From the sequence record PZ379074.1: a stretch of 64,000 nt of DNA, one strand, 5' to 3'. Below, piece after piece: positions 2,384 through 59,514 of the stretch. The notes beneath the pieces were generated by a model. It was not told where the DNA came from, made no database searches, and saw nothing but the letters and a program-made list of their open reading frames with translations. The first letter of the stretch is position 1. The number at the start of each line of letters is the position of its first letter. This DNA is from a phage. The position numbers and the translations under genes are program-made.

Positions 2384-3466
2384 ATGGCTAGTTTAAGAGA
2401 AGAAGCAAAAATAATCGAAGAGTTTTTAACAGAACTCCAAAGAGGCATTCCAGAAGATGAGCGCGTCATGACGGTGTTTGCGCCTGAAGCAACGGTACAG
2501 ACTGACGAGCGCGGCAAGAAGATTAACAGCAGCTTCTGGCCTAAGCCTTGGAAGTTGGGAAAGCCGCTGATGCAACATCAGAACGGTTACGCCTGCATAA
2601 GTTCAATGCGTAAGTCTCCCAACCCAAAGACGGGTGAGATGCGATACTGGCGTACAGAGTCGGCCTTTGGTCACGGCATGGCGATGATGGTCGACGACAT
2701 CGGTCACGGTAAAGGGTCCAAAGGCGATTTAGATTTGGAATTCTTTTTTGAGCGACTGAAGCCGACTGTCATCGTCGAGACTTCACCGAACAACCACCAG
2801 CTTTGGTACTTCTTTAAAGAACCGATTGACCATCTTATTCAGTTCAAAGCGTTCCTTGGGTCTTTCGTTAACATGGTACTCAAGAAGGGCGGCGACAACA
2901 CGATTAAAGACGTAACGCGCGTGGGCCGTGTTCCTGGGTGCATCAACAACAAGCGTGTGACTCACGACGGCCCCTATAAATATGTCGATGAGAACGGCGA
3001 CCCGTTCCGCTGCCGACTTGTCCATGCGGACTACTCATTGCGCTACACCATCGAAGACATTTGTCAGGCATTTGGCTTTCACGTCGTCATGGCGCAAAAG
3101 CGTGAGATTCAAATTGACGTCGATGAATACAAGTATGATGCTGTTTGGTATAAAATAGCCCAGCAGATTCTATCGCGCAACAAAATGGGTGAAGGGTCTG
3201 ATGGCGACGTCATCGAGAACATGTCAGGCAAGTGCCGCATAATCTGTCCTTGGGGTGAAGAACACACCAACGGCGACCCGTATGGCGCTTACTTTCGCGG
3301 CCCTATTCCTGGTGCAGAACATGAGTTTGTGTTCGGTTGCGCCCACGACTGTCACCGGAAAGGGGAAGGCAAGAAAGGTTGGACTGCTTTTGTTGAAGCA
3401 ATCGTCATGCCTTATATTGAGAATCAACTTGACATGATAAATCGTCGTGCAGGTGGCATAAAATAG
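2384..3466 (+). CDS. Putative primase-polymerase-like replication protein with C-terminal Cys/His cluster
   Basis: 360-aa ORF, RBS AAGGAAAG; MMVDDIGHG (DxD-like) and TSPNNHQLWY motifs; C-terminal CPWGEEH...CAHDCH; function is inference only. Confidence 0.5.
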   Translation: MASLREEAKIIEEFLTELQRGIPEDERVMTVFAPEATVQTDERGKKINSSFWPKPWKLGKPLMQHQNGYACISSMRKSPNPKTGEMRYWRTESAFGHGMAMMVDDIGHGKGSKGDLDLEFFFERLKPTVIVETSPNNHQLWYFFKEPIDHLIQFKAFLGSFVNMVLKKGGDNTIKDVTRVGRVPGCINNKRVTHDGPYKYVDENGDPFRCRLVHADYSLRYTIEDICQAFGFHVVMAQKREIQIDVDEYKYDAVWYKIAQQILSRNKMGEGSDGDVIENMSGKCRIICPWGEEHTNGDPYGAYFRGPIPGAEHEFVFGCAHDCHRKGEGKKGWTAFVEAIVMPYIENQLDMINRRAGGIK

Positions 3467-3673: not shown

Positions 3674-3964
3674 ATGAACGAACCAAAAATGATGACCGTT
3701 GAAGAAGCACAAAATCTTCGTGTTGAAAACGAGCTTAAGCTTGTCAACCAGATTCTTCCTTTGTTTGCAGGCTACGCAGTGGAGGAAGTTGTTGGGGCAA
3801 TCCTTAACGTATCCACGCATGTCGCTATGAATCTTCAGGCCGAACGATTCAATACGCTGCTGACTATTAAAAACCTTACGGTCAGTGCAACGTTCACCGT
3901 TGAGCCAGTCAATTTTGACGAAGCTTCAGCCGCGATTCAACAGCAAAGAGATCAAGAGGTGTAG
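3674..3964 (+). CDS. Hypothetical protein
   Basis: 96-aa ORF, RBS AAGGAA. Confidence 0.5.
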   Translation: MNEPKMMTVEEAQNLRVENELKLVNQILPLFAGYAVEEVVGAILNVSTHVAMNLQAERFNTLLTIKNLTVSATFTVEPVNFDEASAAIQQQRDQEV

Positions 3965-3965
3965 C

Positions 3966-4229
3966 ATGGGTGCTTTCCGTAACGAGTTCACCTGGAACGT
4001 TACCAGCAATCTCTCGACTTGTCCTAACTGTGCAAGCGATGTTATCAAGGTGCGGCAGCATCGCAACGCGGAGGAAGGTGCCTGGGAAGATGGCGACCTT
4101 GTAGAGTGCCAGTGCTGCTCTCATGAAGGCGTTGTGGAGCTTTACGCTGGCGAAGGTTGCCCACCAGCAGAGCGCACAGCACGCGTTGAATGGGATGCAA
4201 CAGACTCCATTGGTGATCCTCAACAGTAA
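3966..4229 (+). CDS. Hypothetical Cys-rich (zinc-ribbon-like) protein
   Basis: ATG at 3966 after AGAGGTG; CPNC ... CQCCSHEG motifs. Confidence 0.5.
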   Translation: MGAFRNEFTWNVTSNLSTCPNCASDVIKVRQHRNAEEGAWEDGDLVECQCCSHEGVVELYAGEGCPPAERTARVEWDATDSIGDPQQ

Positions 4230-4775: not shown

Positions 4776-6446
4776 ATGTCAATTGAACATGACAATCTTC
4801 CAGAGGATACAGGTGATGAATTTGGTGCAATCTTTGACGAAATTCAAGACGCTGGTGTTTCAGAAGAGATGCAAGCGGCAGAGCAGCAAGGCACCAGAGC
4901 TAAAATCAGCCTCCAGCATAAGGCTGTTGAGAAAGATGCAGAGCGCATGGAATGCTACGGTGAAGAAGACTTGGTTGAAAGAGCACGCTTGCTCGCCTCA
5001 CTTCAGGTAATCAAGTTCCCTCACTACAAGCCTACCAAAGATGACTTCGTTCTACAGGCAGACCGGACGAGTGACATGAACCGTTATGCGGTTTTCGACG
5101 CGTTGTTTGATAAGGGAAGTGGCATTGTTCCATTCCCTCACAAAGATACTTTTCGTGGGCGCTTAGTCGACCATCGCGGCGAAACATTCACTGACCGTAC
5201 CTTGGAAGTCACAGAGATAGTTGCCGCTGTCGACGCAGCAGGACTGTCTAACCCAAACTCACGTCAGGTCGCTCAATCCTATAAGGAATGGGCCATGCGT
5301 TATCAGCGCGACGACCTGATGGACTTCTTCTACAAGAAGCTTCCTGAATGGGACGGTACTGCGCGCATTGAAAAATACCTTATCGAGCTATTCCGACCGT
5401 TCGATACAGAGTTAAACCGACAAATCGGTGTGTATTTTTGGCTATCGCTCTACAACCGCCTGACAAACCCTGGATGTCAAGCGCCAATCTCCATCGCGCT
5501 CATCGGCGGCCAGAACGCAGGGAAGAGTTATTTTAGTAAGCTACTTTGCGAAGCTATTATGAACGACCGCCACGCAACACCGATTCCGTTGAACTTGGCC
5601 GCGCAGAACTTCAACCCGTTCTTGCGAGCTATTACGGGTCGCTCAATTATCGCGAACGTTGGCGAGATGACAGGCTTTAAAAAGGCTGACATCGAAAACA
5701 TGAAAGCATTCCTGACTAAGACGGAAGATGACCTGGACTTCAAATTTGAAGATACGCAGGTGAAACCACGCCAGTGGATTGCTATCATGGACGGCAACGA
5801 ATACGCAGGCATGCAGCGTGACGACACAGGCAACCGTCGTGTGTACCCTATCTTTGTTGGCCAACTCGCTGACAAGGACGGGCAACCGAACTGGTCCAAA
5901 GACTTCCAAGCTGACCTTTCCACTTTGAAAGAAGACGTTTGGCAGTTGATGGCTGAGTGTGCTGCGTGGATGGAGAAGCACGGTGAAGCAGGTTACAACG
6001 CGTTTGTTGGTGAAACATCTCGCATGCTTACTGAGTTCAGTAAAAACGAAATGGAACGCGCTCGCGGCGTTATCCGTGATGAGATGGTGGACAACGACCT
6101 TGTTGAAGTCGTCATCACCGCGCCTTATGACCGACATCACAGCGGACGCTGGCACATCACCAGTGGTGCTATTGCTATGGGATTCAGAGCGAAATGCGGC
6201 AAGTCGCCTTTCTCTCGTACCCTTGCGCCGCACATGTCAAAGCTTGGCTTTGAGCCTGCTACCTATCGCAACCAGCGCGGTTACTTTACGCCGCTGATTA
6301 AGAATGAAGCAGGGGAATACATTTCTGATTTGATGACTATCTTAGCGTATCTTATCCGCGACGAGTCTGACCCTGAAGATATTGAATTCTTGAAGAAGGT
6401 TATTGAACGCAAACGTTCTTTAGGAAGAGATAAGGATGAATTCTGA
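4776..6446 (+). CDS. P-loop NTPase, VirE/primase-associated helicase-like
   Basis: 556-aa ORF with strong RBS AGGAGG; Walker A GGQNAGKS; position downstream of the primase-polymerase-like gene. Confidence 0.7.
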   Translation: MSIEHDNLPEDTGDEFGAIFDEIQDAGVSEEMQAAEQQGTRAKISLQHKAVEKDAERMECYGEEDLVERARLLASLQVIKFPHYKPTKDDFVLQADRTSDMNRYAVFDALFDKGSGIVPFPHKDTFRGRLVDHRGETFTDRTLEVTEIVAAVDAAGLSNPNSRQVAQSYKEWAMRYQRDDLMDFFYKKLPEWDGTARIEKYLIELFRPFDTELNRQIGVYFWLSLYNRLTNPGCQAPISIALIGGQNAGKSYFSKLLCEAIMNDRHATPIPLNLAAQNFNPFLRAITGRSIIANVGEMTGFKKADIENMKAFLTKTEDDLDFKFEDTQVKPRQWIAIMDGNEYAGMQRDDTGNRRVYPIFVGQLADKDGQPNWSKDFQADLSTLKEDVWQLMAECAAWMEKHGEAGYNAFVGETSRMLTEFSKNEMERARGVIRDEMVDNDLVEVVITAPYDRHHSGRWHITSGAIAMGFRAKCGKSPFSRTLAPHMSKLGFEPATYRNQRGYFTPLIKNEAGEYISDLMTILAYLIRDESDPEDIEFLKKVIERKRSLGRDKDEF

Positions 6447-12867: not shown

Positions 12868-13196
12868 AATTGAAATGGTACGTGGACCCTGAGCCGACAG
12901 GCCAATACAGGTCATTCCAACGTCGCGGCTGGCCGACTTGTTACAGCGGCAATCCCGATAAAGAAGATTGCGAGCTTCTTGCCGCGATAGTAAGTCTTAA
13001 CCATGACGGCTATGAAGGCCACTACGCGAGAGCAACCAACCTTCGGCTCAAGGTGCGCATCCATTTCAAGGTCGCAGGCGAGGACCGCACCGGACTCTCC
13101 AAGGAAGAGTTCAGCAGCATCGCTGAAGCAAAGGCATGGCTAAAAGCATTCTACAAGGCAAATCCTAAATTTTATCCAACTAAGGATGCATCATGA
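12864..13196 (+). CDS. Hypothetical protein
   Basis: 110-aa ORF, ATGA overlap. Confidence 0.55.
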   Translation: MKLKWYVDPEPTGQYRSFQRRGWPTCYSGNPDKEDCELLAAIVSLNHDGYEGHYARATNLRLKVRIHFKVAGEDRTGLSKEEFSSIAEAKAWLKAFYKANPKFYPTKDAS

Positions 13197-13414
13197 CCGA
13201 TAAACAATACGCAGTCGGGCAACGTGACATCGAACAACTCGACGAGGGCGGCTATTATACGCGCCACATCTATGCCATGACTCATGAAGGACTTTACAGC
13301 AAGTCGGACATCGCCGCTGAATTGGCCCATCGTGACTTGCAGATTGACATGTTGCGTCTCGCGCTTGAGAAGCAAACGCAGATTGCCATTGAAATTTTGG
13401 AGAAGTTAGAATGA
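13193..13414 (+). CDS. Hypothetical protein
   Basis: 73-aa ORF, ATGA overlap. Confidence 0.5.
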   Translation: MTDKQYAVGQRDIEQLDEGGYYTRHIYAMTHEGLYSKSDIAAELAHRDLQIDMLRLALEKQTQIAIEILEKLE

Positions 13415-13830
13415 TACAACGTTACGATGTTGATTATTGCACGCAGCACGCTTGCACTTGCGAAGTTGTAAAGGATAATGAAGGCGGCTACGTTGAATAT
13501 GAGGACTATGCCGCGCTGGAAGCGAAATATAATGAAGCGCAACGCGAGTTGGCTGCATTACGCTCACAGGTCCGTGATGCATCGGCGCTCGTTAAGCAGT
13601 TGCACGACGTTGTTGCTACTATAGGCGTGGATGATGATGCGCCGAAGGAGGAAGCGTGGACCGTGTGGTTTGGTGGCGCGAATCCGGTGCCTGGGAAGAT
13701 GGTTGAGTTTGAATTACTCAACGGTTATAAATCAAAAGAAGCCGTGCCAGCAGACAACTTGAACTGGGGCGAGGTAACAAGTCCGACTGGGGCAAAGATT
13801 ATTGCTTATCGGGTCGTTAAGGAGGGGTGA
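13411..13830 (+). CDS. Hypothetical protein (paralog of the 12017 ORF C-terminal domain)
   Basis: 139-aa ORF; WTVWFGGANPVPGK ... IIAYRVV. Confidence 0.55.
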   Translation: MIQRYDVDYCTQHACTCEVVKDNEGGYVEYEDYAALEAKYNEAQRELAALRSQVRDASALVKQLHDVVATIGVDDDAPKEEAWTVWFGGANPVPGKMVEFELLNGYKSKEAVPADNLNWGEVTSPTGAKIIAYRVVKEG

Positions 13831-14363
13831 TGGGCGGCTTTTGGCGTAAAGCTAAATACTCTAAAGACTTGCATTACTTCTTGGATAATGAAGGCATAAG
13901 TATATGTGGCAGGTACAGAAGGGATAATGAATCAGCGTCGCAAAGTAATAAGGCTGAATGGTTACTCAAGGAAGAGTGCAAAGTTTGCCGCAAACGTTTT
14001 TGTGACAAAACCAGCATGACTGATTACATAAAGGAGCTTAGAAAAAGATGCAAAAGCCCGCAAGAGTTTGCCATAACTCTTTGGGATGATCACCCTGAGT
14101 TGAGAAGTGAATGGTTAAAGACTGATGCAATCAATTACATCTTCAAATCGAAATACAGGACGACAGCAAGATATAAAATGGATGAAGCAGTAATTCAAAA
14201 GGTATTTTCTTATTGGAGGGATACAGTCGATATTGTGAAAATAAAGAAATACCAAAACGAAGTGCTGCTGGAATTGGAGAGGATTGGCTATAAAGTCACC
14301 AATAAAATGATAAAAGAAGAAATAAAAAGGAGAACGGAAAAGGGGTTGATGCCTAAGATATAG
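13827..14363 (+). CDS. Hypothetical Cys-rich basic protein
   Basis: 178-aa ORF, RBS AAGGAGG; CGRY ... CKVCRKRFC. Confidence 0.55.
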   Translation: MMGGFWRKAKYSKDLHYFLDNEGISICGRYRRDNESASQSNKAEWLLKEECKVCRKRFCDKTSMTDYIKELRKRCKSPQEFAITLWDDHPELRSEWLKTDAINYIFKSKYRTTARYKMDEAVIQKVFSYWRDTVDIVKIKKYQNEVLLELERIGYKVTNKMIKEEIKRRTEKGLMPKI

Positions 14364-14599
14364 TGAATAAACGAACACCGTTTACGTGTTTTGAAGAATG
14401 GAATGTGTACAATGGGTCGCTTTATGCGGCCTTTTGTTGTTTGGGTCGTGTTTTGCGATGGAATAATTATGAGGTTGTGTTTTATTTATTAATTGTGCGG
14501 AAATATTTAGAAATATATTTCATAGGTCGTGTCTATTGGTCCGTGGTGTTTGTTAGGACTTATCTATGGATTGAAATTTTAGTGTCGTGAAACGTGGTG

Positions 14600-15060
14600 T
14601 TTGAACACATTTGATACGCGTAAAATACGGCTAAAAATTAAGCGTATCATGGCTGCAGGCCGCGCCGTTACTGAGTTCCTATTTTCAAAAGTGGTACACC
14701 CTTACGGATGATACGTCATGGTTTTTTATCCGTATCAGTGTACAGCCCTTGCCGCGCCTGGCCTGTACATTAATCTTACGGATGATACGGATAAAACTGG
14801 GCACCATTATATATATAATTTGAAAAATTAATTAACTCCATTTTAAAAACATTTAAATTATTTTTTTCATATCCTCATACTTATGTTAATTTATATATTT
14901 AACGTATCATCCGTAAGATATAAGTAAAAACAAAGACTTGCGGCAATACGGATGATACGTTATGATACGCTTCGACCAGCCAGCAGCGGCTAAGTCATTG
15001 ATTTGCATAACAAGCAGCGAAAGGGATGGATTTCTTTTATCCGTATCAAACAGTACACCA
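14600..15060. repeat. Iteron-like locus A: inverted and direct copies of CGGATGATACG around an AT-rich core
   Basis: CTTACGGATGATACG at 14701 and 14775; TTATCCGTATCA at 14727 and 15037; inverse copy at 14902; ACGGATGATACGTTATGATACG at 14948; AT-rich core 14808-14900; TACGCGTA at 14614. Confidence 0.6.
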
Positions 15061-15198
15061 CGCACCACGGTCCGTTATCCATTCAGCACTATGATTTGTG
15101 TACGTTTATAGCCATAATGAACATCAATCTGCACTTGAATATAATGTCCATCCATTGTATAATTCACACTATTAATTTGCACTATGGGATTTTGCACT

Positions 15199-15672
15199 AT
15201 GAGTCAAGATTATGTAGCGATGCCTGAAGACTTTGAAGACCCGCGATTTGCAGAGCACAATCAGGCTTTATTCGATGAGTTCATTGACCTTGTTATTCAG
15301 GGCCATGACATGCGCGCAGCTTTTGCACTAGTATTTGGAATGGAAGTTGCAACGGATAACTACACTGGCCAGCGAATCCTTTGCGCGCAACGCAATCCAT
15401 ACTACAAGATGCGCTTCAAAAAGCGTATGGAAGAGATGCCACTCAAGGATTTGTGGAGCGTAAAAGGTGCAATTCACAATTTGGTCAAGCTTGTGCGTGA
15501 TCCAGAAGTCGCGGCGTCAGCCAAACTTAATGCTATTCGTGAACTGAATATCATCTACGGCATCACGATGATTGATGAAAACGGCAATAGTAAAATGGGC
15601 CGTTCCATGGACGATTTCTACAAGGATTTTGGAGAGGCGGCCAAAGAAGGTGAGCAATTCTCCCGCCACTAG
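15199..15672 (+). CDS. Hypothetical protein (157 aa); ATG embedded in an 11-mer copy
   Basis: ORF MSQDYVAMPEDFEDPRF...; no obvious SD; start codon is the ATG of TTTGCACTATG. Confidence 0.45.
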   Translation: MSQDYVAMPEDFEDPRFAEHNQALFDEFIDLVIQGHDMRAAFALVFGMEVATDNYTGQRILCAQRNPYYKMRFKKRMEEMPLKDLWSVKGAIHNLVKLVRDPEVAASAKLNAIRELNIIYGITMIDENGNSKMGRSMDDFYKDFGEAAKEGEQFSRH

Positions 15673-15691
15673 CCAATTTGCACTATAAAAC

Positions 15692-15725
15692 GGCCCTAGA
15701 ACACATTTTCTCCACTTCTAGGGCC
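15692..15725. other. Perfect 10-bp inverted repeat (GGCCCTAGAA / TTCTAGGGCC) with 14-nt loop
   Basis: Read directly; immediately after the 15199..15672 stop and an 11-mer copy; no clear U-tract on plus strand. Confidence 0.4.
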
Positions 15726-16100
15726 ATCGGTAATACGACGGGGAAGGTTACAACCATAAACGCGTTATAAAGTGTATTATTATAAGTCATCTTTTAGTCA
15801 CTTTCCGTAACAATTTACGACCTTCAACCGTCCAATCGAACGACTCCACCAGCAGATTTGCACTATAACCTAAGACTACCCGACCTTTCTCGTTATCGAC
15901 CCGCCAGCAAGTCTCGAATAGCATCTTATTTGCACTATTAACTATCGCCGCAACTCGCGTAGGATAAGCGCAATTTGCACTATGGTCATAAAGGGATAAG
16001 GTGCGACCACTTCCGATGGACAACGTAGCGATGAGAATGAGCGTATTCATAAGCCACCAATTTGCACTATGAAAAGCGACCCCGAAGGGCCGCCATTCTA

Positions 16101-16727
16101 TTAGATAATCTGGAAGGTGTAGGACTTGTTGCCGAACTCAAAGTTCAAGCGCCCAGCTTCCTTAAGCTTCATGCGGAAGCGAATGTGTTTGCTATCCGGC
16201 AAGCCCAGCGCGGCGAACGCTACGCGGACCGATTTGAACTCGCCTACACCCTCGACCATGACACCGTTACGGGTGAGACGCTTTTGCGCCACTTCCTTAT
16301 TATCCCAGCTTTTTGCAATACCTTCGCTATTCGAACGGCGATGGGAAGGAGTTCCATTTTGCACTACGCAATTTGCACTATCGTTTAAACCGCTCTTAAC
16401 GAAGGCTTCATATTCTTCGTCGGTCATCGCGTCGAGTTCTTCCTGGGTCGGCTCAGCCTTTTTAACGACCGCACGCGCCTTATGCGTTTTTACATCGCTG
16501 GACACTTCCTCGCGCGGCTTCGCGTCGGGAATGGGCGATTCGTTGGACGGCTCATCGAGCGCGTTTAAGGACTCGATTAACGCGATTACGCGAGTCTCGG
16601 CGGTCCGGCGGTCCGCGAATTTCTTAATCGGCTTCGAACCGGAATTTGCATTATAAAATGCAACGAGGTCGGCGGTCTTAGTTGCGATAACGTCGCCGCT
16701 AGTAGAAAAGCGATTTAAGCTAACCAT
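16101..16727 (-). CDS. Hypothetical protein; 5-prime half CpG-rich, 3-prime half of ordinary composition
   Basis: 208-aa ORF with minus-strand RBS AGGAG in context CTAGGAGTTTATTATG; contains two 11-mer copies at the composition change. Confidence 0.55.
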   Translation of the reverse strand: MVSLNRFSTSGDVIATKTADLVAFYNANSGSKPIKKFADRRTAETRVIALIESLNALDEPSNESPIPDAKPREEVSSDVKTHKARAVVKKAEPTQEELDAMTDEEYEAFVKSGLNDSANCVVQNGTPSHRRSNSEGIAKSWDNKEVAQKRLTRNGVMVEGVGEFKSVRVAFAALGLPDSKHIRFRMKLKEAGRLNFEFGNKSYTFQII

Positions 16728-16807
16728 AATAAACTCCTATTTGTTAGGGCGCTAGGCGCGAAAGAATTTTATTAAAGCGCCGCGCACGACGCTCTAAAAA
16801 TCCTCTC

Positions 16808-17122
16808 TTACTCTTCGTCGTCTTCGATTAATTCGAGGGCGAAGGCGTAAGCTTTGCTATCGTAATTAACTAAAACGGCGAGTTCGAACTCGTTAATAAA
16901 CGCCGTTTTACCGCATAAATTTAATTCCGCATCGACTTCGAAGAATCCGTTTTCGTCGCGCTCTAAGCGAGAAGCAGCGAGTTGCTCGATTACCGTCGCG
17001 TCGTTAATTTCTTCGCCTAAGCGAACGCCGGAGAATTTAGCGAGAATTTCGCCGTAAGTAAGCGTAACGCCCTGGACTTCGGCGGTTGCGTTTTCGAGGG
17101 TAAAGCGGGTAACGATAGCCAT
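16808..17122 (-). CDS. Small acidic hypothetical protein (104 aa, C-terminus ELIEDDEE)
   Basis: RBS context CTAGGAGTTTATTATG; CpG-rich codon usage. Confidence 0.55.
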   Translation of the reverse strand: MAIVTRFTLENATAEVQGVTLTYGEILAKFSGVRLGEEINDATVIEQLAASRLERDENGFFEVDAELNLCGKTAFINEFELAVLVNYDSKAYAFALELIEDDEE

Positions 17123-17346
17123 AATAAACTCCTAGTTGGGAGAGGCGTTAACGACCTATTCGTTAACTCATCCCGTCCCGATATGAGTACATTATAATAT
17201 AGTGTAGAAAAAAGTAAAGCACTTTTTCGATAAAAATGCGATAAATTATTTTATCTTTTTTCTTTACTTCTTCGTACACTCGCGTATACTTGTTTATATC
17301 GAGACGGGCGATGTCCCTTTCTTCTACTAGCATCGGGAGCTTTATT
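17123..17346. promoter_or_regulatory. Divergent intergenic control region with repeated TTTATATCGAGA(C/G)GGG elements and TATAAT-like hexamer
   Basis: CTTTACTTCTTCGTACACT plus TTTATATCGAGA repeated at 17255-17300 and 17660-17700; inverted copies of AAAGTAAAGCACTTTTTCG at 17212 and 17648. Confidence 0.4.
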
Positions 17347-17649
17347 ATGACTACTTTAATCTCTTCCATCCTTACTTACGACGAAGACCGCTTAACCGTT
17401 CGCTCTCTTATCGCCGCCGTTAACGCGGAACTAGAATCTAGCGCCATTAAGGTCCGCGCGGTCGCCTTCATCGGCCTTTCCTTCGACGATATGAAGTATG
17501 CCGAACGTAGCGCTATCCGCTTCGCGAAGACCGACGACGAAGCCGTTACCCTTATCGAGACGGTTACGCCGCGCGACGAAGCGTTAATTATCGTCGAGTA
17601 TATCGACGTAGAAGGCGATAAGGCTTATAAATATTTTATCGCAGAATAA
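17347..17649 (+). CDS. Small acidic hypothetical protein (100 aa)
   Basis: ATG at 17347 after GGGAGCTTTATT; CpG-rich. Confidence 0.55.
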   Translation: MTTLISSILTYDEDRLTVRSLIAAVNAELESSAIKVRAVAFIGLSFDDMKYAERSAIRFAKTDDEAVTLIETVTPRDEALIIVEYIDVEGDKAYKYFIAE

Positions 17650-17756
17650 CGAAAAAGTGCTTTACTTCTTCGTACACTAAGACTATAATGTTTTATATCG
17701 AGAGGGGATGAGGTAGCGAATAGGTCGCTACCCTCCCGACCAACTAGGAGATTATT

Positions 17757-18047
17757 ATGATTACTTTAGCCGCTATCCGTAACGCTCGCGCCGAAACTTC
17801 CGAAAACTCTAACGTATTTGGCGAAAAACTTAAAAACGTTTATCTCTTTAACGTAGATGCGACTATCGAGGAGCTTCATAGTCCTATCGATTTTAGCGAA
17901 TTTACGGAACTCGAAGAGGAAGATATTTCTACTTTCCGCGTTACTATCGAAGGCAAGGTTTATTTTGCTACGGAGTTCGGCGGCGAATATCTCGCGGTAT
18001 CCGAAGGCGAAGGCCGTTACTCTTTCTTTAAAATCGTCTCCTTATAA
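17757..18047 (+). CDS. Small acidic hypothetical protein (96 aa)
   Basis: RBS context CTAGGAGATTATTATG preceded by hairpin GTAGCGAATAGGTCGCTAC. Confidence 0.55.
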   Translation: MITLAAIRNARAETSENSNVFGEKLKNVYLFNVDATIEELHSPIDFSEFTELEEEDISTFRVTIEGKVYFATEFGGEYLAVSEGEGRYSFFKIVSL

Positions 18048-18049
18048 TA

Positions 18050-18758
18050 CCCTTCCGTTACTAATAGGCCGCGCTTAGTCGCGGCTTTTCTTCGTCCCTA
18101 TCCCGATGCGCGTCTACGCGAAAACTCCTTTATCCTTCCCTTCGTCGTCGCATAATCTTCTTCGAGATGCTCCTTAGTTCGCATAACAGGTATTACGTTA
18201 AATGGAGAACATCGCGTAAGTCCTTGTTTTATATAGACACCTATATCGGACCGTTAGGGCGGGTCGCGTAAGTCGTTGTTTTATAAAGGCGCAAAACTTT
18301 CCCTTCGTTCCGAACTAAAACGAGGAATATGCCGACCCTTCGTCCGAAAATAGTATGCATGCGAAATTACATGCATCTAGAATAATCCCCACCGATATTA
18401 TCCTACACGCAATCATTCGCTTTCGAATCATTATGCTTCATATTATTATGCATCGAATCATTCTCTTTCGAATTGTAACGCTGGAAACTGTAACGGCGAT
18501 TGATTATTGCGTTCGTGTGGTTTTTAGGGCATGGGTCTTTTGGTGCGTTTTGCTACTTGATGAAATTTGCGGTACACTAATCAAAATACGACACATTTGG
18601 TCCACTAACTTTTCAAAGAAAAAGTCCTAGACAGTACCGTACTATTTTGCACCCACAGGAAATTTGCAGTACACTCCTGCGCGGCAGGCAAAATAAAGGG
18701 CCGCACTAAGCGACCCACTAAGCGACCCACGATTCACGGTTAAAGCAACATCCACCCA
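18050..18758. repeat. About 700 bp without a convincing ORF, rich in short direct repeats
   Basis: CGCGTAAGTCNTTGTTTTATA x2 (18216, 18267); CGAATCATT x3 (18420-18470); TGTAACG x2; ATTTGC(A/G)GTACACT x2 (18563, 18662); ACTAAGCGACCC x2 (18705-18730). Confidence 0.4.
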
Positions 18759-24074: not shown

Positions 24075-25535
24075 ATGAATAAAATATTAACACATAATTG
24101 GAAAGTCATGTACCAGTTGAATCCTGCTTTAAGAGAAGTCTGGAAGACGAAGGCGCGATACAAAGTTATATACGGCGGTCGTGCATCTTCCAAATCGCAT
24201 GATGCCGCTGGTTTTGCTATTTATTTGGCGGCAAACTTTAAATTAAAATTCCTTTGCGTTCGACAATTCCAGAACAAGATTTCTGAATCAGTATATACGC
24301 TATTAAAAGACAAAATAGAAATTTCTGATTTCAAAGACGAGTTCAACTTATTAAAGAACTCTATTGAACACAAAAGAACAAAATCTGAATTTTTATTTTA
24401 CGGTATCGCACGCAACGTTGACGAAATCAAATCAACAGAAGGTGTTGATGTTCTTTGGCTTGAAGAAGCGCATGCACTGACTGAAGAGCAATGGGACATT
24501 ATTGAGCCGACAATTCGTAAGGAAGGGTCCGAAATATGGATCATATTTAACCCTGATGAAGAGGCTGATTTCGTCTACCAGAACTTTGTCATGCGACCGC
24601 CGAAAAATGCCATCGTTAAGAAGATTAACTGGCAGGACAATCCATTCTTGTCGCAAACAATGCTGGATGTTATCGCTGGCATGTATGAGCGCGACCCGAA
24701 AAAGGCAGAACACGTTTATGGCGGAGTGCCGAAGACAGGCGGCGATAAGTCGGTCATCAACCGTGCATTCGTCAAAGCCGCGCTAAACCTCCACAAACAC
24801 CCTACGCTGGGATGGAGCTTGTCAGGGTCTAACCGTATAGGCTTCGACGTGGCGGACGACGGCGACGACTTAAACGCCACAGCATTTGTCACAGGCAACG
24901 TATTACGTGGCATCAAGACATGGGAAGGTCTGGAAGATGAATTGCTTAAGTCCGCAAGCGGAGTTTGGAAAGACGCATTGACATTCGGCGCGTCAATTAC
25001 CTATGACGCCATCGGTGTCGGTGCATTTGCTGGTTCAAAATTTGATGAGCTCAATGAGTATGCAATACATGAAAATCCAACATTCCCAAGAATCGAATTT
25101 AATGCGTTCAACGCGCAAGGTGCTGTTGATGATCCTGATGACGTTTTCCTTGAGTTACCACACGTTGAAATACTCAATAAAGACCATTTCGCAAACATAA
25201 AAGCGCAAAAATGGACTGAGATTGCCGAACGATTCAGAAAGACATATGAGTATGCGACAGGGCAAGCCGCATATCCGACCGATGAGTTGATTTCCATCGA
25301 CACAGACGGCATTCCAGAACTTGGGATTCCTGCTTGGTCTGCGGAAGAAATTGAGACGTTTCTTTTTGAGATGTCAGCGCCGCGCAAAGACACGTCTGTT
25401 CTTGGTAAGTTCAAAGTTGAATCGAAAAAGGATATGGCAAAGCGTGGAGTTAAATCGCCTAACAAAGCGGACGCCGCAATCATGGCATTGATGAAACCAA
25501 TTGTTGCAGCATCCGGCTTCTTCTCTAACCTTTAA
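24075..25535 (+). CDS. terL: Terminase large subunit
   Basis: 486-aa ORF; Walker A-like GGRASSKS near N-terminus, acidic nuclease-type C-terminal half; first in the morphogenesis module. Confidence 0.8.
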   Translation: MNKILTHNWKVMYQLNPALREVWKTKARYKVIYGGRASSKSHDAAGFAIYLAANFKLKFLCVRQFQNKISESVYTLLKDKIEISDFKDEFNLLKNSIEHKRTKSEFLFYGIARNVDEIKSTEGVDVLWLEEAHALTEEQWDIIEPTIRKEGSEIWIIFNPDEEADFVYQNFVMRPPKNAIVKKINWQDNPFLSQTMLDVIAGMYERDPKKAEHVYGGVPKTGGDKSVINRAFVKAALNLHKHPTLGWSLSGSNRIGFDVADDGDDLNATAFVTGNVLRGIKTWEGLEDELLKSASGVWKDALTFGASITYDAIGVGAFAGSKFDELNEYAIHENPTFPRIEFNAFNAQGAVDDPDDVFLELPHVEILNKDHFANIKAQKWTEIAERFRKTYEYATGQAAYPTDELISIDTDGIPELGIPAWSAEEIETFLFEMSAPRKDTSVLGKFKVESKKDMAKRGVKSPNKADAAIMALMKPIVAASGFFSNL

Positions 25536-26191: not shown

Positions 26192-26353
26192 TTCAATCTC
26201 CTTTCGTTTGGTTAACTAAAATATAACTCAAAATGATACAAAAGCAAAATATTTTATGAACTATTTATGATCACCATACATATCATTTGCTTACAAACAC
26301 ATGAATATTTATAATATAGATTGATTCCCTTTCACTGTCAGGTGGCGTTAACA

Positions 26354-28729
26354 ATGAAAATTCTTGGCATAAAACTCTGGGAGAAGACGCAACCAGAAGC
26401 CGAACCAGCGGAGATGCCGCCAGGCGACCCATTGGCACCGTTTGAACGCCTTGAAAGGCGCGGCAGCGGTCAACGCTGGGAAAAGACTGAAAGCAATCGA
26501 CCGACCTTTAAAACGGTTGATGACTTCCCTTTATATGAGCCTGATATTAATGGCGATGGTGTTGCAATCATAAAAGGTCGTTCAGTCGATTCCGCAACAG
26601 TATCCAAAAAGGTTATGGATAATGCCTTAAAGAACATCAGTTCAGAAGGGCAAGTCAACCCATACACAGTACCTATTCAACTTCAAAACTGGTATTTGTC
26701 ACAGTCATTCATCGGCTATCAAGCTTGTGCCATCATCGCACAGCATTGGCTGGTGAACAAGGCGTGTTCCATGGTAGGTCGCGATGCGGTCCGTAAAGGT
26801 TGGGAAGTCAAATCCAGTTCTGAGTCAGAATTGTCAGTACAGGCAAGCGAACGCCTAAAGCAAATTGATAAAGAATTTAATATCAAAGAGCACTTAGTTG
26901 AAGCCGAACGATTCAAAAATATTTTTGGTATCCGCGTCATCATATTTGATGTGCGTAGCGATGACCCAGAATATTACAGCAAGCCTTTTAACATTGATGG
27001 TGTGACAAAGGGGTCTTATAAGGGAATCATTCAGGTTGACCCTTATTGGATGATGCCGTTTCTGACGTCTGAAAACACAGCAGACCCTGCATCACAGCAC
27101 TTCTATGACCCAGAATATTGGGTAATCAGCGGACAACGTTATCATCGCAGCCACCTCATAATCTTGCGCAACGATGAGCCAGCTGATATTCTCAAGCCGA
27201 CTTATATTTACGGCGGCATTCCTCTGACTCAGCAGATTTATGAACGCATCTATGCCGCTGAACGTACCGCTAACGAAGCGCCATTGCTGGCGATGTCCAA
27301 GCGTACAACCACGCTGCGGACCGACGTTGACAAGGCGATTGCCAATGAGCGGTCTTTTGCAGAACGTCTGATGATGTGGATCAAGTACCGCGACAACTAT
27401 GCAGTTAAAGTGCTTGGCCAAAAAGAAGAGATGGACCAGTTTGACATCAACTTGTCAGACTTCGACAGCATCATCATGAACCAGTACCAGCTTGTGGCCG
27501 CAATCGCAAAAGTTCCGTCGACCAAACTGCTTGGGACTTCGCCAAAAGGCTTTAACGCCACTGGTGAATTCGAGATGGTCAGCTATCACGAAGAGTTGGA
27601 AACGTGCCAGCAGCATGACCTGACAAAAATTCTCGACCGCCATTACAAAATCCTTCTCAAATCAGAAGGGGTGGATGTCGATGTTAAGGTTGCATGGGAA
27701 CCAGTTGGCTCACTTACTGCTACTCAACTTGCAGAAATCAATGATAAGCGAGCCAACACTGGCAAAACTCTTATTGATGCTGGCGTCATTTCTCCTGATG
27801 AAGAGCGCGACCGCATCAAAGACGACAAAAACAGCGGCTACAACCGTCTGCCGGAAGACGCAGCAGAAGAAACCCCAGGGATGTCTCCAGAGAATATGGC
27901 ATTGCTTGGCAAGTCTGCTGGTGAAGTCCTGCAAGGTAAGGCCGATATTGAACAGGCGAAAGCTGATGTCGTTAAGATGGGCGGCCAGTTCTACAGTGAA
28001 ACAGGCATTATGCCAGAGGGTGCCGCGCGTGGTGAGTTGGCGGAAAACCCTGACAAAGCGCCTGTCGAAATCAACATGGACGATACCGATGATGAATCAA
28101 GCCATCAGGTTGGTGTCCTAACGCAGTTGAAAGAAGGGCTGGAGGGTATTGCGGATTACTACCTGAAAGAAGGTCAGGATGTGGATTTTGACCCTCAAAA
28201 AGATTCACGGTCGGTGCAACCGTCTACCCTTCCAAGCGTTAAAGGACACGTCGTCAACTTACGCCACAACGTGGGTAAAATGGACGCAGCATCATTACCT
28301 AAGATGAAGTTGCACGGAATGATTCTTGGCATTGAGAATCCGCGAAACAGCATTCGTAGAGGAAACAGCCTTGACGGTGAATGGGCCGTGAAGATGCCGC
28401 ACCACTACGGATTCATCAAGGGCACCAAGGGCGCAGACGGTGATGAAGTCGACTGCTTTGTGGGTCCAAATCTGAAGTCGCCGAAAGTCTTTATCGTGAA
28501 CCAAAACGATAACTACTCTGGCGAGTTTGATGAACACAAGTGTATGCTTGGATTCGATTCAGCAGAAGAAGCGAAAGAAGCTTATCAAGCATCATTTGGT
28601 AACGGTTGGAACGGATTCGACTCAATCCACGAATTAGATGTGAACTCATTCAAGGAGTGGTTGAAGGGTGATTGCTCTCAAGCATACGGAGCACTCAATA
28701 ATCCTACTAATTCACCGAAGCAAGGTTGA
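26354..28729 (+). CDS. Portal protein with C-terminal inorganic-pyrophosphatase-like domain
   Basis: ATG at 26354 after AGGTGG (track uses TTG at 26321); large ORF directly after terminase; C-terminal HHYGFI...DGDEVDCFV and SAEEAKEAYQASF resemble family I PPase. Confidence 0.75.
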   Translation: MKILGIKLWEKTQPEAEPAEMPPGDPLAPFERLERRGSGQRWEKTESNRPTFKTVDDFPLYEPDINGDGVAIIKGRSVDSATVSKKVMDNALKNISSEGQVNPYTVPIQLQNWYLSQSFIGYQACAIIAQHWLVNKACSMVGRDAVRKGWEVKSSSESELSVQASERLKQIDKEFNIKEHLVEAERFKNIFGIRVIIFDVRSDDPEYYSKPFNIDGVTKGSYKGIIQVDPYWMMPFLTSENTADPASQHFYDPEYWVISGQRYHRSHLIILRNDEPADILKPTYIYGGIPLTQQIYERIYAAERTANEAPLLAMSKRTTTLRTDVDKAIANERSFAERLMMWIKYRDNYAVKVLGQKEEMDQFDINLSDFDSIIMNQYQLVAAIAKVPSTKLLGTSPKGFNATGEFEMVSYHEELETCQQHDLTKILDRHYKILLKSEGVDVDVKVAWEPVGSLTATQLAEINDKRANTGKTLIDAGVISPDEERDRIKDDKNSGYNRLPEDAAEETPGMSPENMALLGKSAGEVLQGKADIEQAKADVVKMGGQFYSETGIMPEGAARGELAENPDKAPVEINMDDTDDESSHQVGVLTQLKEGLEGIADYYLKEGQDVDFDPQKDSRSVQPSTLPSVKGHVVNLRHNVGKMDAASLPKMKLHGMILGIENPRNSIRRGNSLDGEWAVKMPHHYGFIKGTKGADGDEVDCFVGPNLKSPKVFIVNQNDNYSGEFDEHKCMLGFDSAEEAKEAYQASFGNGWNGFDSIHELDVNSFKEWLKGDCSQAYGALNNPTNSPKQG

Positions 28730-30689: not shown

Positions 30690-30975
30690 ACGCGTATAAT
30701 GACGTATCATCCGTATCAAGTAAGTAGTTGTTTTCAAAAGAATCTTACGGATGATACGGATGATACGCGTTGCCGCGATACTTTATAAGAGTTTATAAAA
30801 AAATAAAATTATATATCTAATTTAATTTTATTTTTTTATAAACTCTTATATATGAAAAGTATCCGTATCATCCGTATCATCCGTAGCACACCAGTGATAG
30901 CGCGGCTTATACACCGATACGGATAAAAATACACCTCATTTTATCCGTATCATCCGTATCACACTAATTAAGGCG
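30690..30975. repeat. Iteron-like locus B: tandem and inverted CGGATGATACG copies flanking a 60-bp AT-rich palindrome
   Basis: CTTACGGATGATACGGATGATACG at 30744; ATCCGTATCATCCGTATCATCCG at 30861; TTATCCGTATCATCCGTATCA at 30951; AT palindrome 30783-30850; TACGCGTA at 30689. Confidence 0.6.
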
Positions 30976-31070
30976 CGGCTATATCGGTTGTTATACATAT
31001 TCAAACCATAATTATTGTTTGCCTAAGTTTTTTTCATTAGATATAATACACAATACTTATTTGAGGGTGG

Positions 31071-32489
31071 ATGCGAATGCAAACGGCACGCGAAATTGAC
31101 AAAAATGGATTCTTGACGATTGTGGGTTGTCCCATTTCGTCATTTGGCATTTTTGATTATTCTGCAGGTCAGGTTGGACTTGATGGTGATCCGAATCGCA
31201 TCGTAAAAGTTTATCGCCCAGAGTCAGCGGTGAAAGACCCCGAAGCGATAGATTCATTCAAAAATATCCCTTTCATCGACAATCACGAAATGCTTTCTGG
31301 ATTCGAAGGTGATGAGGATAACACAGCACCCGAAGAGTATGGCGTTGATGGCGTTCTAACTGGCAATGTTTATTATGACAAGCCATGGATGCGCGGCGAC
31401 CTTAAAGTTTTTAGCCGTCGTCTGAAGAAAGCCATCGATTCTGGAAAGGTTGACTTGTCTTTGGGCTATGACTGTGAATTCATCATACAGTCTGGAGAGT
31501 TTGACGGGCAGCCGTATGAAGTGGTACAGACAACTCTTCGCGGCAACCACATTGCTCTCGTGGACGTTGGTCGAGTACCAGGTGCACGGGTGCTGGATGG
31601 TCGTTGCTTTGACCATCTTTGTTTGACGACTGTAACACCATCCAACGAGGATTTAGACATGCCAAAACCGTTAAAAGGTAAAGCGCGTGATAATGCTGTT
31701 GAACAGCTGAAATCACTGATCCCTGCGCTCGAACAATTTCTGAATGAAGAGAGCACCGAAGCTGCTCATCAGGACGAAGTTGAAGTGAAAGCAGAAGAGA
31801 AGGATTCAACCGAAGAACGTGAAGAAGTGATGGTTGATCCAGAAGTTAAAGCAGAAGCTGAAGAGACTCCAGAAGGTGAAGAGAAGTTTGAAGTTGAAAC
31901 TGAATCTCACGCTGGCGGCGAGCTTCCGCAACTGATCAGCCAAATCGAAGCACTTATTGCAAAACTGAAAGGTGGCGCGGTAGGTGATGAAGAAGAAGTT
32001 GAAGCCGAAGTCAAAGACGAAGAAGTTGAAGTCAAGGCTGAAGATGTATCACCTTGCGACAAAGCTGAAGATGTGGTTAGCGGCCTGCAAAACAGCAACG
32101 TAAAGGGGGCTTCGGTCGAAAAAGATGACAAACCGACAAAAGCGGCGAAAGCGTCGCCAGGTCCAGCAAAAGGGGAACACTCAATGGCATCTGATTCAGC
32201 AGTTGCTGCTTTCTACGCTGATTCTGCTCGTAAGAATAGCCTCTACCAGCGCCTGTCTAAAGTTGTTGGTGCCTTTGATCATGCAACTATGGACTCCAAG
32301 TCCGTAGCGAAATATGGCGCTAAAAAGTTAGGCTTGAAGTGCGTTGATGGTGCTGAGTTTGACGTGGTGGATAATTATCTGCGCGGCGTTGAACACGGTC
32401 AAAAACAGCGTGTAGTCGCAAAACAAAAGGCCGCTGCGGATTCTGCAGCAACTGACGAAGCATTTGAAGCTTGGTTGAAAGGGGAATAA
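31071..32489 (+). CDS. Putative prohead protease/scaffolding protein with acidic EVxVKAE repeats
   Basis: 472-aa ORF upstream of the capsid gene; central Glu-rich repeats (EVEVKAEEK, EVKAEAEE, EVEAEVKDEEVEVKAED). Confidence 0.65.
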   Translation: MRMQTAREIDKNGFLTIVGCPISSFGIFDYSAGQVGLDGDPNRIVKVYRPESAVKDPEAIDSFKNIPFIDNHEMLSGFEGDEDNTAPEEYGVDGVLTGNVYYDKPWMRGDLKVFSRRLKKAIDSGKVDLSLGYDCEFIIQSGEFDGQPYEVVQTTLRGNHIALVDVGRVPGARVLDGRCFDHLCLTTVTPSNEDLDMPKPLKGKARDNAVEQLKSLIPALEQFLNEESTEAAHQDEVEVKAEEKDSTEEREEVMVDPEVKAEAEETPEGEEKFEVETESHAGGELPQLISQIEALIAKLKGGAVGDEEEVEAEVKDEEVEVKAEDVSPCDKAEDVVSGLQNSNVKGASVEKDDKPTKAAKASPGPAKGEHSMASDSAVAAFYADSARKNSLYQRLSKVVGAFDHATMDSKSVAKYGAKKLGLKCVDGAEFDVVDNYLRGVEHGQKQRVVAKQKAAADSAATDEAFEAWLKGE

Positions 32490-59095: not shown

Positions 59096-59514
59096 GACAA
59101 TTCCTCTAAATACTTGATGATGTGATGAATAGTTCCCTTCACGATTATCTCACGTTGAACGTCTGCAGTATTATAACGCTTTAATTCAATAGAAGGGTGG
59201 ACTAAATAAAACATCTTCTCAGAATCAACTTTAAGTAAAACGAATGATGGGTATCGCCAATCATTCCAAGACGAAAGAAAGCTGCATTGGCCTTTCTCAA
59301 ATGCATTTCTGAAAGGTGCAGTGGTGGCCCTTGCAGGCCACGATTCAAAGAACTTCATTTCAAGCCAAAAGCCGCGCCCTTTCCGGTTGGTGCCGATTAC
59401 GTCCGGCACACCATCACCCGTCATTGATTCGATTCTTTGAAGCTTCAAGATTGATTCTGAATGCTTCTTCAAAGGCACGAATATGTATTTCTGTTCACGG
59501 TTATTTGTTGCCAT
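59092..59514 (-). CDS. VRR-NUC (PD-(D/E)xK) nuclease
   Basis: Start at 59514 after AGGTG; GVPDVIG ... WLEMKF; coupled to SNF2 helicase. Confidence 0.6.
   Translation of the reverse strand: MATNNREQKYIFVPLKKHSESILKLQRIESMTGDGVPDVIGTNRKGRGFWLEMKFFESWPARATTAPFRNAFEKGQCSFLSSWNDWRYPSFVLLKVDSEKMFYLVHPSIELKRYNTADVQREIIVKGTIHHIIKYLEELS

Follow-up and report, generated by a model that had tools for sequence, protein, structure and literature searches.

The 64,000-nucleotide stretch of phage DNA analyzed here (sequence record PZ379074.1; hereafter the window, whose numbering is used throughout) carries two loci, A (about 14600-15060) and B (about 30690-30975), in which short repeated boxes face each other across AT-rich cores. 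Locus A is followed on the plus strand by the gene for the small terminase, TerS (15184-15672), which is recognized by a phmmer match to PDB 7UXE (E=6e-34) and is annotated as TerS in the related phage Mansfield. Locus B is directly followed by the gene for a DUF2213 head protease (31071-32489). Two plus-strand replication genes lie upstream of both loci: a RepB'-type primase gene (2384-3466; Pfam RepB_primase, E=4e-36; phrog_4861 DNA primase) and, downstream of it, rep (4776-6446), which encodes a Pfam VapE-like NTPase. Locus A is 8 kb downstream of rep, and locus B is 24 kb away.

Positions 13000-17000 align with 29 phage records at 88-96% identity, and every one of these belongs to the genus Wifcevirus; they are Escherichia coli and Shigella myophages of 67-72 kb and include WFC, WFH, ECML-117, FEC19, vB_Eco4M-7, and Mansfield. 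On the basis of this similarity, the window is assigned to Wifcevirus, that is, to an E. coli myophage related to Pbunavirus. Wifcevirus phages are distant relatives of Pbunavirus (PMC11990801) and have a terminal repeat of ~3.7 kb (PMC6563267; PMC6753283). The description of vB_Eco4M-7 mentions neither an origin nor repeats, and no paper linking Pbunavirus with iterons was found in the literature searched. A known RNA family, a plasmid origin, and a relative on the E. coli chromosome can all be set aside on zero matches: Rfam covariance models gave none at gathering score over the whole window, and searches of plasmids and E. coli genomes returned neither relatives of locus A or B nor a plasmid origin.

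The repeats are concentrated in the two loci to a degree that chance does not explain. The 11-mer CGGATGATACG has 10 exact copies in 64 kb, counting either strand, with four in locus A (14705+, 14779+, 14903-, and 14949+), six in locus B (30703-, 30748+, 30757+, 30864-, 30873-, and 30946-), and none elsewhere; it is thus not one of those 11-mers that are common genome-wide, an outcome that would have undone the preliminary description of locus A. When one mismatch is allowed, a single extra match appears, at 60322 and outside both loci, and the resulting 11 matches compare with 0.79 expected, a number reached in 0/100 shuffles. The elementary unit is TGATACG, present in 22 copies of which 17 fall inside the two loci (9 in A and 8 in B), often in tandem at a spacing of 9-10 bp, as in GATGATACGGATGATACG. 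A longer form, the 15-mer CTTACGGATGATACG, is found at 14701+, 14775+, 14903-, and 30744+. In a 9-mer census of the window this motif family stands at the tied top count and is essentially restricted to loci A and B, which, together with the shuffles, rules out chance or a genome-wide common word. The claim that at least six copies lie within 460 bp consequently holds for TGATACG, with its nine copies in locus A, and not for the 11-mer, with four. The boxes are unlikely to be DnaA boxes: two core positions set TTATCCGTA apart from TTATCCACA, and the majority of copies are even less similar.

The nine TGATACG boxes of locus A (14612+, 14643-, 14709+, 14731-, 14783+, 14903-, 14953+, 14963+, and 15042-) are arranged in blocks on both sides of its core. 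On the outer left, TGATACG at 14612 (+) and CGTATCA at 14643 (-) form a 12-nt inverted pair (14612-14649), which is found in the WFC-type subgroup only; in the WFH/ECML-117 subgroup this flank is replaced. A second pair follows within 14701-14743, consisting of CTTACGGATGATACG at 14701-14715 (+) and TTTTATCCGTATCA at 14724-14737 (-). The left inner iteron block, CTTACGGATGATACGGATAAAAC at 14775-14797 (+), borders the AT-rich core; within it, CTTACGGATGATACGGAT is unchanged in 9/9 aligned Wifcevirus loci, and homology between the two Wifcevirus subgroups begins exactly here. The core itself (14790-14902; 113 bp, 83% AT) is a candidate DNA-unwinding element and contains a weak internal palindrome at 14823-14866. 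To its right lies CGTATCATCCGTAAG at 14903-14917 (-), the inverse of 14775-14789, at which relatives show a single tolerated C/T polymorphism. Two boxes spaced by 10 bp, TACGGATGATACGTTATGATACG at 14947-14969 (+), form a 16-nt perfect inverted repeat with 14900-14915 and are unchanged in 9/9 relatives except at 14961 (T/C), and an outer right box, again TTTTATCCGTATCA, occupies 15035-15048 (-). The inverted copies said earlier to bracket an AT-rich core are borne out by arms at 14766-14789 and 14903-14926, which are 24 nt long, 88% complementary, and 113 nt apart.

Locus B repeats this plan. An outer left double box, CGTATCATCCGTATCA at 30703-30718 (-) with its boxes 9 bp apart, and a left inner double iteron, CTTACGGATGATACGGATGATACG at 30744-30767 (+), precede a core of 96 bp and 82% AT (30768-30863). 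They are mirrored by a right inner run, ATCCGTATCATCCGTATCATCCGTA at 30861-30885 (-), unchanged in 6/6 relatives, and by nearly invariant outer right boxes at 30916-30961, GATACGGATAAAA (+) followed by TTTTATCCGTATCATCCGTATCA (-). The inverted arms of locus B are 22 nt long and 100% complementary. In a window of 54% AT, no other 80-mers are as rich in AT as those of the cores of A and B (0.875 and 0.912), with that of A ranking second. Within the core of B, further arms at 30784-30814 and 30820-30850 (31 nt, 97% complementary) are found in this phage only: the palindromic left arm is missing in 5 other Wifceviruses, which carry an unrelated left arm, and one arm of the core seems to have been copied onto the other in this phage. 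A functional cruciform is therefore ruled out as a general feature of locus B.

That 30690-30975 is a paralogous locus, as had been proposed, is upheld by local alignment, in which A scores 78 against the reverse complement of B and 50 against B itself, with a shuffle maximum of 34. Judged by these alignments, loci A and B are paralogues of ~280 bp each with inverted ends.

Locus A also holds, by homology, the left physical end of the genome. The records of WFC, WFH, SP13, Ro157lw, and Mansfield all start at the equivalent of 14839/14840, the first base of the WFC record aligning to window position 14840, so that the end is read from five end-resolved relatives of the window phage. The Mansfield ends were obtained with PhageTerm, and its record was opened at the predicted boundary (PMC6753283). 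The five starts have in common the junction ...TTAACTCC/ATTTT, which in the window reads ...TTAACTCC/ATTTTAAAAAC..., and because the flanking AATTAACTCC/ATTTT is unchanged in 9/9 aligned loci, save for one inserted A at the SP13 junction, the left end of this phage is placed at 14840. The cut sits 6 bp from 14846, the symmetry center of the inverted pair of locus A. Since the start of the relatives maps to 14839/14840, the left boundary of the ~3.7-kb direct terminal repeat (DTR) would lie inside the AT-rich core, and the repeat, as deduced from these relatives, would span 14840-18540 (3701 bp), with terS as its first gene. As the core thus holds the left DTR boundary, 345 bp upstream of terS, the evidence for a role of locus A in packaging is no less direct than that for a role in replication.

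The right DTR boundary, GGGTCTTT/TGGTGCG at 18540/18541, is the same in 4/5 records, with WFC ending 81 bp further on, at 18621. No TGATACG boxes were found at this boundary, and an arrangement in which boxes mark both cuts is accordingly ruled out. No record's physical end maps to locus B. The only break seen there is the end of a 68.5-kb metagenomic Wifcevirus contig, IMGVR_UViG_3300045988_152943, which stops at the edge of locus B (~30737), ~334 bp short of the protease gene, and is probably an assembly break at the inverted repeats.

Kylevirus, Pbunavirus, and Bcepfunavirus also have the pair of loci, with one member between rep and terS and the other ahead of the head protease gene, which are the two positions that it occupies in the window. 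The sequence of the boxes differs by genus, with TGATACG in Wifcevirus, GGTTATT and ATATCCGAA in Kyle, TTATCCGCAAGA in the metagenomic L050, GTAATTTGG in E217, and TAACTAAG in BcepF1. The record of Pantoea phage Kyle (Kylevirus; DTR of 3603 bp) opens within an AT-rich core, 356 bp ahead of terS, and inverted arms with the boxes GGTTATT and AATATCCGAA have their center 5 bp from this point. Of the 24 copies of GGTTATT in Kyle, 17 lie either in this terS-side locus or in a second one just upstream of the DUF2213 protease gene. In Pbunavirus E217, GTAATTTGG is confined to the DNA upstream of terS and to that ahead of the protease gene, and the conventional PB1-type record start of Pbunavirus (Ab27) lies at the edge of the AT-rich core of the terS-side copy. 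Burkholderia phage BcepF1 has the same pair of loci with its own TAACTAAG boxes. An IMG/VR scan with a TerS alignment gave only the three genera already known from the analysis.

Within genera, local scores of A against B are 78, 125, 133, and 90, with shuffle maxima of 29-34. The copies are therefore alike within a lineage and divergent between lineages, as would be expected if one lineage-specific protein, acting in trans, must read both. Within Wifcevirus, the right half of locus B is almost invariant in six phages that differ by 2-7% over locus B, and the left inner block of locus B in Bas101 is shorter by exactly one 9-bp iteron unit (TACGGATGA), a copy-number change by one repeat register. 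Locus A of ECML-117, FEC19, and WFH has, left of its inner iteron, DNA with no relation to that of the subgroup of the window; in the WFH subgroup, this left half of A instead resembles the left half of B (a doubled iteron plus CGCGT(C/T)GCCGC...ACTTTATA), a likeness in sequence that suggests exchange or gene conversion between the loci.

The element lies directly 3' of rep, or of rep and one or two small open reading frames (ORFs), in E217, BcepF1, TropicalSun, XcP1, and L050, and terS is the next gene after it in Wifcevirus, Kyle, E217, BcepF1, TropicalSun, and L050. In XcP1 it adjoins rep, with 3.2 kb of small genes separating it from terS, which is itself preceded by GC-rich, featureless DNA. 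The element is thus linked to terS in Wifcevirus and Kyle, to rep in XcP1, and to both in the other genera examined. As the boxes of XcP1 and TropicalSun are vaguely defined, these two phages were drawn on solely for the finding that an AT-rich element follows rep.

The identity of Rep gives these loci a possible function. Rep matches 7PDS by phmmer (E=4e-11), and its AlphaFold model (46 homologues; predicted local distance difference test score of 87) has a canonical C-terminal winged helix at residues 436-505. In a Foldseek search with this model, the best PDB matches are six chains of 7PDS (E=1e-16, ~479 columns) and the next family follows at 9e-8, which puts 7PDS nine orders of magnitude ahead over almost the whole Rep chain. 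The structure 7PDS is that of Rep1 from the Staphylococcus aureus pathogenicity island (SaPI) SaPI1 with double-stranded DNA (PMC9371898). According to the predicted model, Rep is a self-loading initiator-helicase of the SaPI1 Rep1 type, with a VapE-like ATPase and a C-terminal winged helix. SaPI Reps are initiator-helicases of this kind whose C-terminal winged helix binds short iterons, and their origin lies immediately downstream of rep, with pri upstream of rep, and has 6-12 iterons and an AT-rich center with at least two iterons per side in opposite orientation; in the structure of Rep1 with DNA, two iterons lie within 19 bp (PMC9371898).

Measured against that description, loci A and B have 9 and 8 boxes with inverted inner blocks around an AT-rich center, and the genome encodes a Rep-family initiator-helicase with a winged helix. 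Likeness to the SaPI origins (PMC9371898) extends to the tandem spacing of ~9-10 bp and the close match in Rep fold (E=1e-16), to a primase gene upstream of rep, and to the position of the element directly 3' of rep in relatives. The differences are that the DNA belongs to a virulent myophage of ~68 kb and not to a satellite, that Rep binding is predicted, that there are two copies, the second within the head-gene cluster, with the element 8 kb from rep, that the boxes are 7-9 bp long compared with 5-6 bp in SaPIs, and that the core of copy A carries the genome terminus. Conservation over 45 homologues is lowest in the winged helix of Rep (23% identity, compared with 59% for the ATPase), and such fast evolution fits boxes that are genus specific.

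Taken together, these observations lead us to propose, with roughly even confidence for and against, that loci A and B are two SaPI-type iteron origins read by Rep and that the left genome end is cut within the unwinding element of A. The C-terminal winged helix of Rep would bind the boxes of both loci, Rep, loaded as a helicase at either flank, would melt the core, and the RepB'-type primase (2384-3466) would prime synthesis. The unwinding element of A would at the same time be the site where the left chromosome end is cut, immediately upstream of terS; in the five end-resolved relatives and in Kyle, the left DTR end lies within ~6 bp of the center of the element. The terminase would probably be recruited by a separate oriented array in and behind terS. 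The analysis establishes the anatomy of the loci, the restriction of that anatomy to two places, its conservation and covariation from genus to genus, where the terminus falls in relatives, and the fold of Rep; we infer Rep binding to the boxes, the firing of either locus as an origin, and the targeting of the cut to A and not B. The replication origin suggested in the preliminary description is therefore the best-supported interpretation, by virtue of a SaPI-type Rep, a matching layout, and a position after rep in relatives; it stays an interpretation, and the genome end had been missed.

Candidates for the separate array are at hand. Ten copies of TTTGCACTA, all in one orientation, extend over 15176-16380 (+), from just before the start codon of terS across that gene and the minus-strand genes behind it, wholly inside the DTR. 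Arrays of CCACCAGC are found in Kyle (9 copies, 255-1972), L050 (6 copies, 13236-14439), and TropicalSun (5 copies, 4987-5492), in and just after terS and all in terS orientation. Unlike the genus-specific origin boxes, CCACCAGC is common to three genera. The TTTGCACTA and CCACCAGC arrays are candidate terminase-recognition (pac) signals. One TTTGCACTA(T) copy of the window is fused to CCACCAGC, at 15846-15866.

Several points weigh against loci A and B being Rep-dependent origins. Locus A is 8 kb from rep in the window and not adjacent to it, the element of Wifcevirus and Kylevirus stays with terS and not with rep, and the definition of the boxes is weak in XcP1 and TropicalSun. We know of no established precedent for a genome end at the center of an origin, and such an end is more simply explained if the boxes are terminase sites. 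Two origins of one kind give no reason why B should stay uncut, and the cut-site sequence of Kyle is nearly identical in its A and B copies. The origin link of both loci is drawn from comparison of sequence and structure. A GC-skew study of Pbunavirus puts the putative origins at other sites, amid the genes for replication (PMC12390725), an objection tempered by the skew of the window, which tracks gene orientation only and was for that reason rejected as an origin marker.

The main alternative, which would explain the genome end more simply, is that the boxes are recognition sites of the terminase and that A is a packaging-initiation, terminus-generating site of the pac or cos kind. Oligomers of TerS would occupy the inverted arrays to the left and right, and the large terminase (TerL) would cut the deformable AT-rich center, with B as a second, uncut terminase-binding site, for instance a synapsis partner or a regulatory site. 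We regard this as a serious though somewhat doubtful possibility. It is consistent with the left end lying within 6 bp of the array center in Wifcevirus and Kylevirus, with the PB1-convention record start of Pbunavirus at the edge of the same core, and with terS being the next gene in Wifcevirus, Kyle, E217, BcepF1, TropicalSun, and L050. The physical end of the packaged genome falls within the element by homology to five records and Kyle, and terS begins 345 bp from the cut. The E217 homologue (PDB 7UXE) is a decameric TerS ring with helix-turn-helix motifs; E217 TerS is, however, reported to show no appreciable DNA binding in vitro (PMC9611059), which argues in the other direction. A conserved second copy without a known terminus is likewise hard to fit, the more so as the Kyle copy has nearly the same cut-site sequence, and a site of the pac or cos type would be single in the genome, whereas locus B is a conserved paralogue. 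The element of XcP1 adjoins rep and not terS, no boxes mark the right DTR boundary, and the boxes are wholly different between genera, whereas CCACCAGC is common to three genera and occupies a more conventional place for pac.

Classical packaging sites sharpen this comparison. In P1 pac, SPP1 pacL-pacC-pacR, and lambda cosB-cosN, short boxes lie on both sides of the cut and next to the small-terminase gene, and the layout of locus A resembles that of P1 pac, SPP1 pacL-pacC-pacR, and the R sites of lambda cosB. The boxes of P1 pac are Dam-methylated TGATCA/G hexamers, whereas neither TGATACG nor CGGATGATACG contains GATC, so that the boxes are not of the P1 type. In addition, the P1, SPP1, and lambda sites are unique in their genomes, whereas here a conserved paralogue is left uncut, and this phage has direct terminal repeats of 3.7 kb in place of headful or cohesive ends.

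A further possibility is that origin and genome end are mechanistically one, in that firing of origin A, or its melting by Rep, creates the substrate of the terminase, with B as a protected partner. A rightward fork from origin A would duplicate the 3.7-kb DTR, so that each concatemer junction could yield two complete ends; B, whether a second origin or a synapsis point, would be recognized by that same protein yet be protected from cutting. We consider such coupling unlikely.

It is more improbable still that the loci serve transcription, with a phage DNA-binding regulator on the box arrays upstream of two strong sigma70-type promoters, those of terS and of the head protease operon, timing late expression. 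Both loci do lie upstream of near-consensus sigma70-type promoters, one into terS at 15135-15163 (+; TTGAAT-17-TATAAT), which is a consensus match only and invariant in relatives, and one into the head protease gene at 31019-31047 (+; TTGCCT-17-TATAAT); in Kyle, equivalent TTG...-17-TATAAT sequences can be seen at loci A and B, and Pbunavirus 14-1 uses many sigma70-like promoters (PMC10914365). However, the nearest boxes end at 15048 and 30961 and the -35 hexamers begin at 15135 and 31019, so that the boxes lie at least 58-87 bp upstream of the promoters and do not overlap them. Other predicted late units have no boxes, for example upstream of TerL at 24075, the XcP1 element precedes small genes and not terS, and a core of ~100 bp and 82-83% AT between inverted arrays is no operator layout. 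No candidate regulator gene was identified in this genome, and the multi-operator control hub offered earlier as the other reading of locus A is not sustained.

That the loci are instead a small non-autonomous mobile or selfish repeat, of the miniature inverted-repeat transposable element type, or structural or insulating DNA without a sequence-specific partner is highly improbable: two paralogues of ~280 bp with inverted ends and signs of sequence exchange would suit it, but in at least four genera they fill one and the same pair of syntenic positions, each genus with its own sequences, their non-coding DNA is very highly conserved (the right half of B being almost invariant over six phages), and no copies turned up in the rest of the window, among plasmids, or in E. 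coli genomes.

Other replicons offer partial parallels. Satellite phage P4 has ori and crr, two separated cis loci with the same short repeats, which are bound by the C-terminal domain of its primase-helicase initiator. The presence of two such loci with the same short repeats in one genome is shared with the window; the P4 alpha protein, however, is a fused primase-helicase of a different family, and its loci are 4.5 kb apart and lack inverted arrays around an AT core. The oriV of RSF1010 combines 20-bp direct iterons bound by RepC with the hairpins ssiA and ssiB. Here, too, a RepB'-type primase is encoded and inverted elements lie on opposite strands by an AT-rich segment, but neither a RepC homologue nor an ssi-like conserved hairpin was identified.

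As a kind of element, the iteron origin is already known. What is new is that such an element is present twice, at two fixed sites throughout a phage lineage, that its copies evolve in concert, and that one of them has the genome terminus at its center. Few phages are used in therapy as much as Wifcevirus and especially its relatives in Pbunavirus, and their origins and packaging signals have been undescribed; the nature of the Pbunavirus genome ends is itself disputed (PMC3008698, PMC12390725). The analysis supplies precise cis elements, with two loci per genome, genus-specific boxes, and a defined cut, along with candidate trans factors in Rep, through its winged helix, and TerS, all of which have direct uses in rebooting and engineering genomes and in studies of host range. 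If the cut is indeed coupled to origin activity, this would bear on the long-standing question of how long DTRs arise and would offer a replication-coupled route to them, a step still unexplained for most DTR phages.

Some further features of the window and its relatives may be recorded. TerL is encoded at 24075-25535, the portal protein at 26321-28729, and the Pol III alpha subunit at 59501-62398 (-). In addition to Phage_portal_3 (residues 133-479), the portal protein has a C-terminal inorganic pyrophosphatase domain (Pfam InPase, E=3e-46, residues 660-782). Two hypothetical-protein ORFs, E217 gp77 (1675-2295) and TropicalSun gp87 (3700-4110), are annotated over the repeat element between rep and terS and are probably not genes. 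Between this element and terS, E217 also has a perfect 39-bp tandem duplication (two copies of CCACCATCGTCGCCCACCAACCGCCGACTCGATCCTCAC, 2185-2262). In the right part of the DTR of the window (18190-18480), inspection by eye shows further direct repeats, with TCGCGTAAGTC(C/G)TTGTTTTATA occurring twice along with several TCGAATCATT-like units. Beyond the right DTR boundary (18540-18680), there are two copies of AAATTTGC(G/A)GTACACT, at ~18553 and ~18658, and Kyle has AATTTCACAGTACACTA ~25 bp past its own right DTR boundary.

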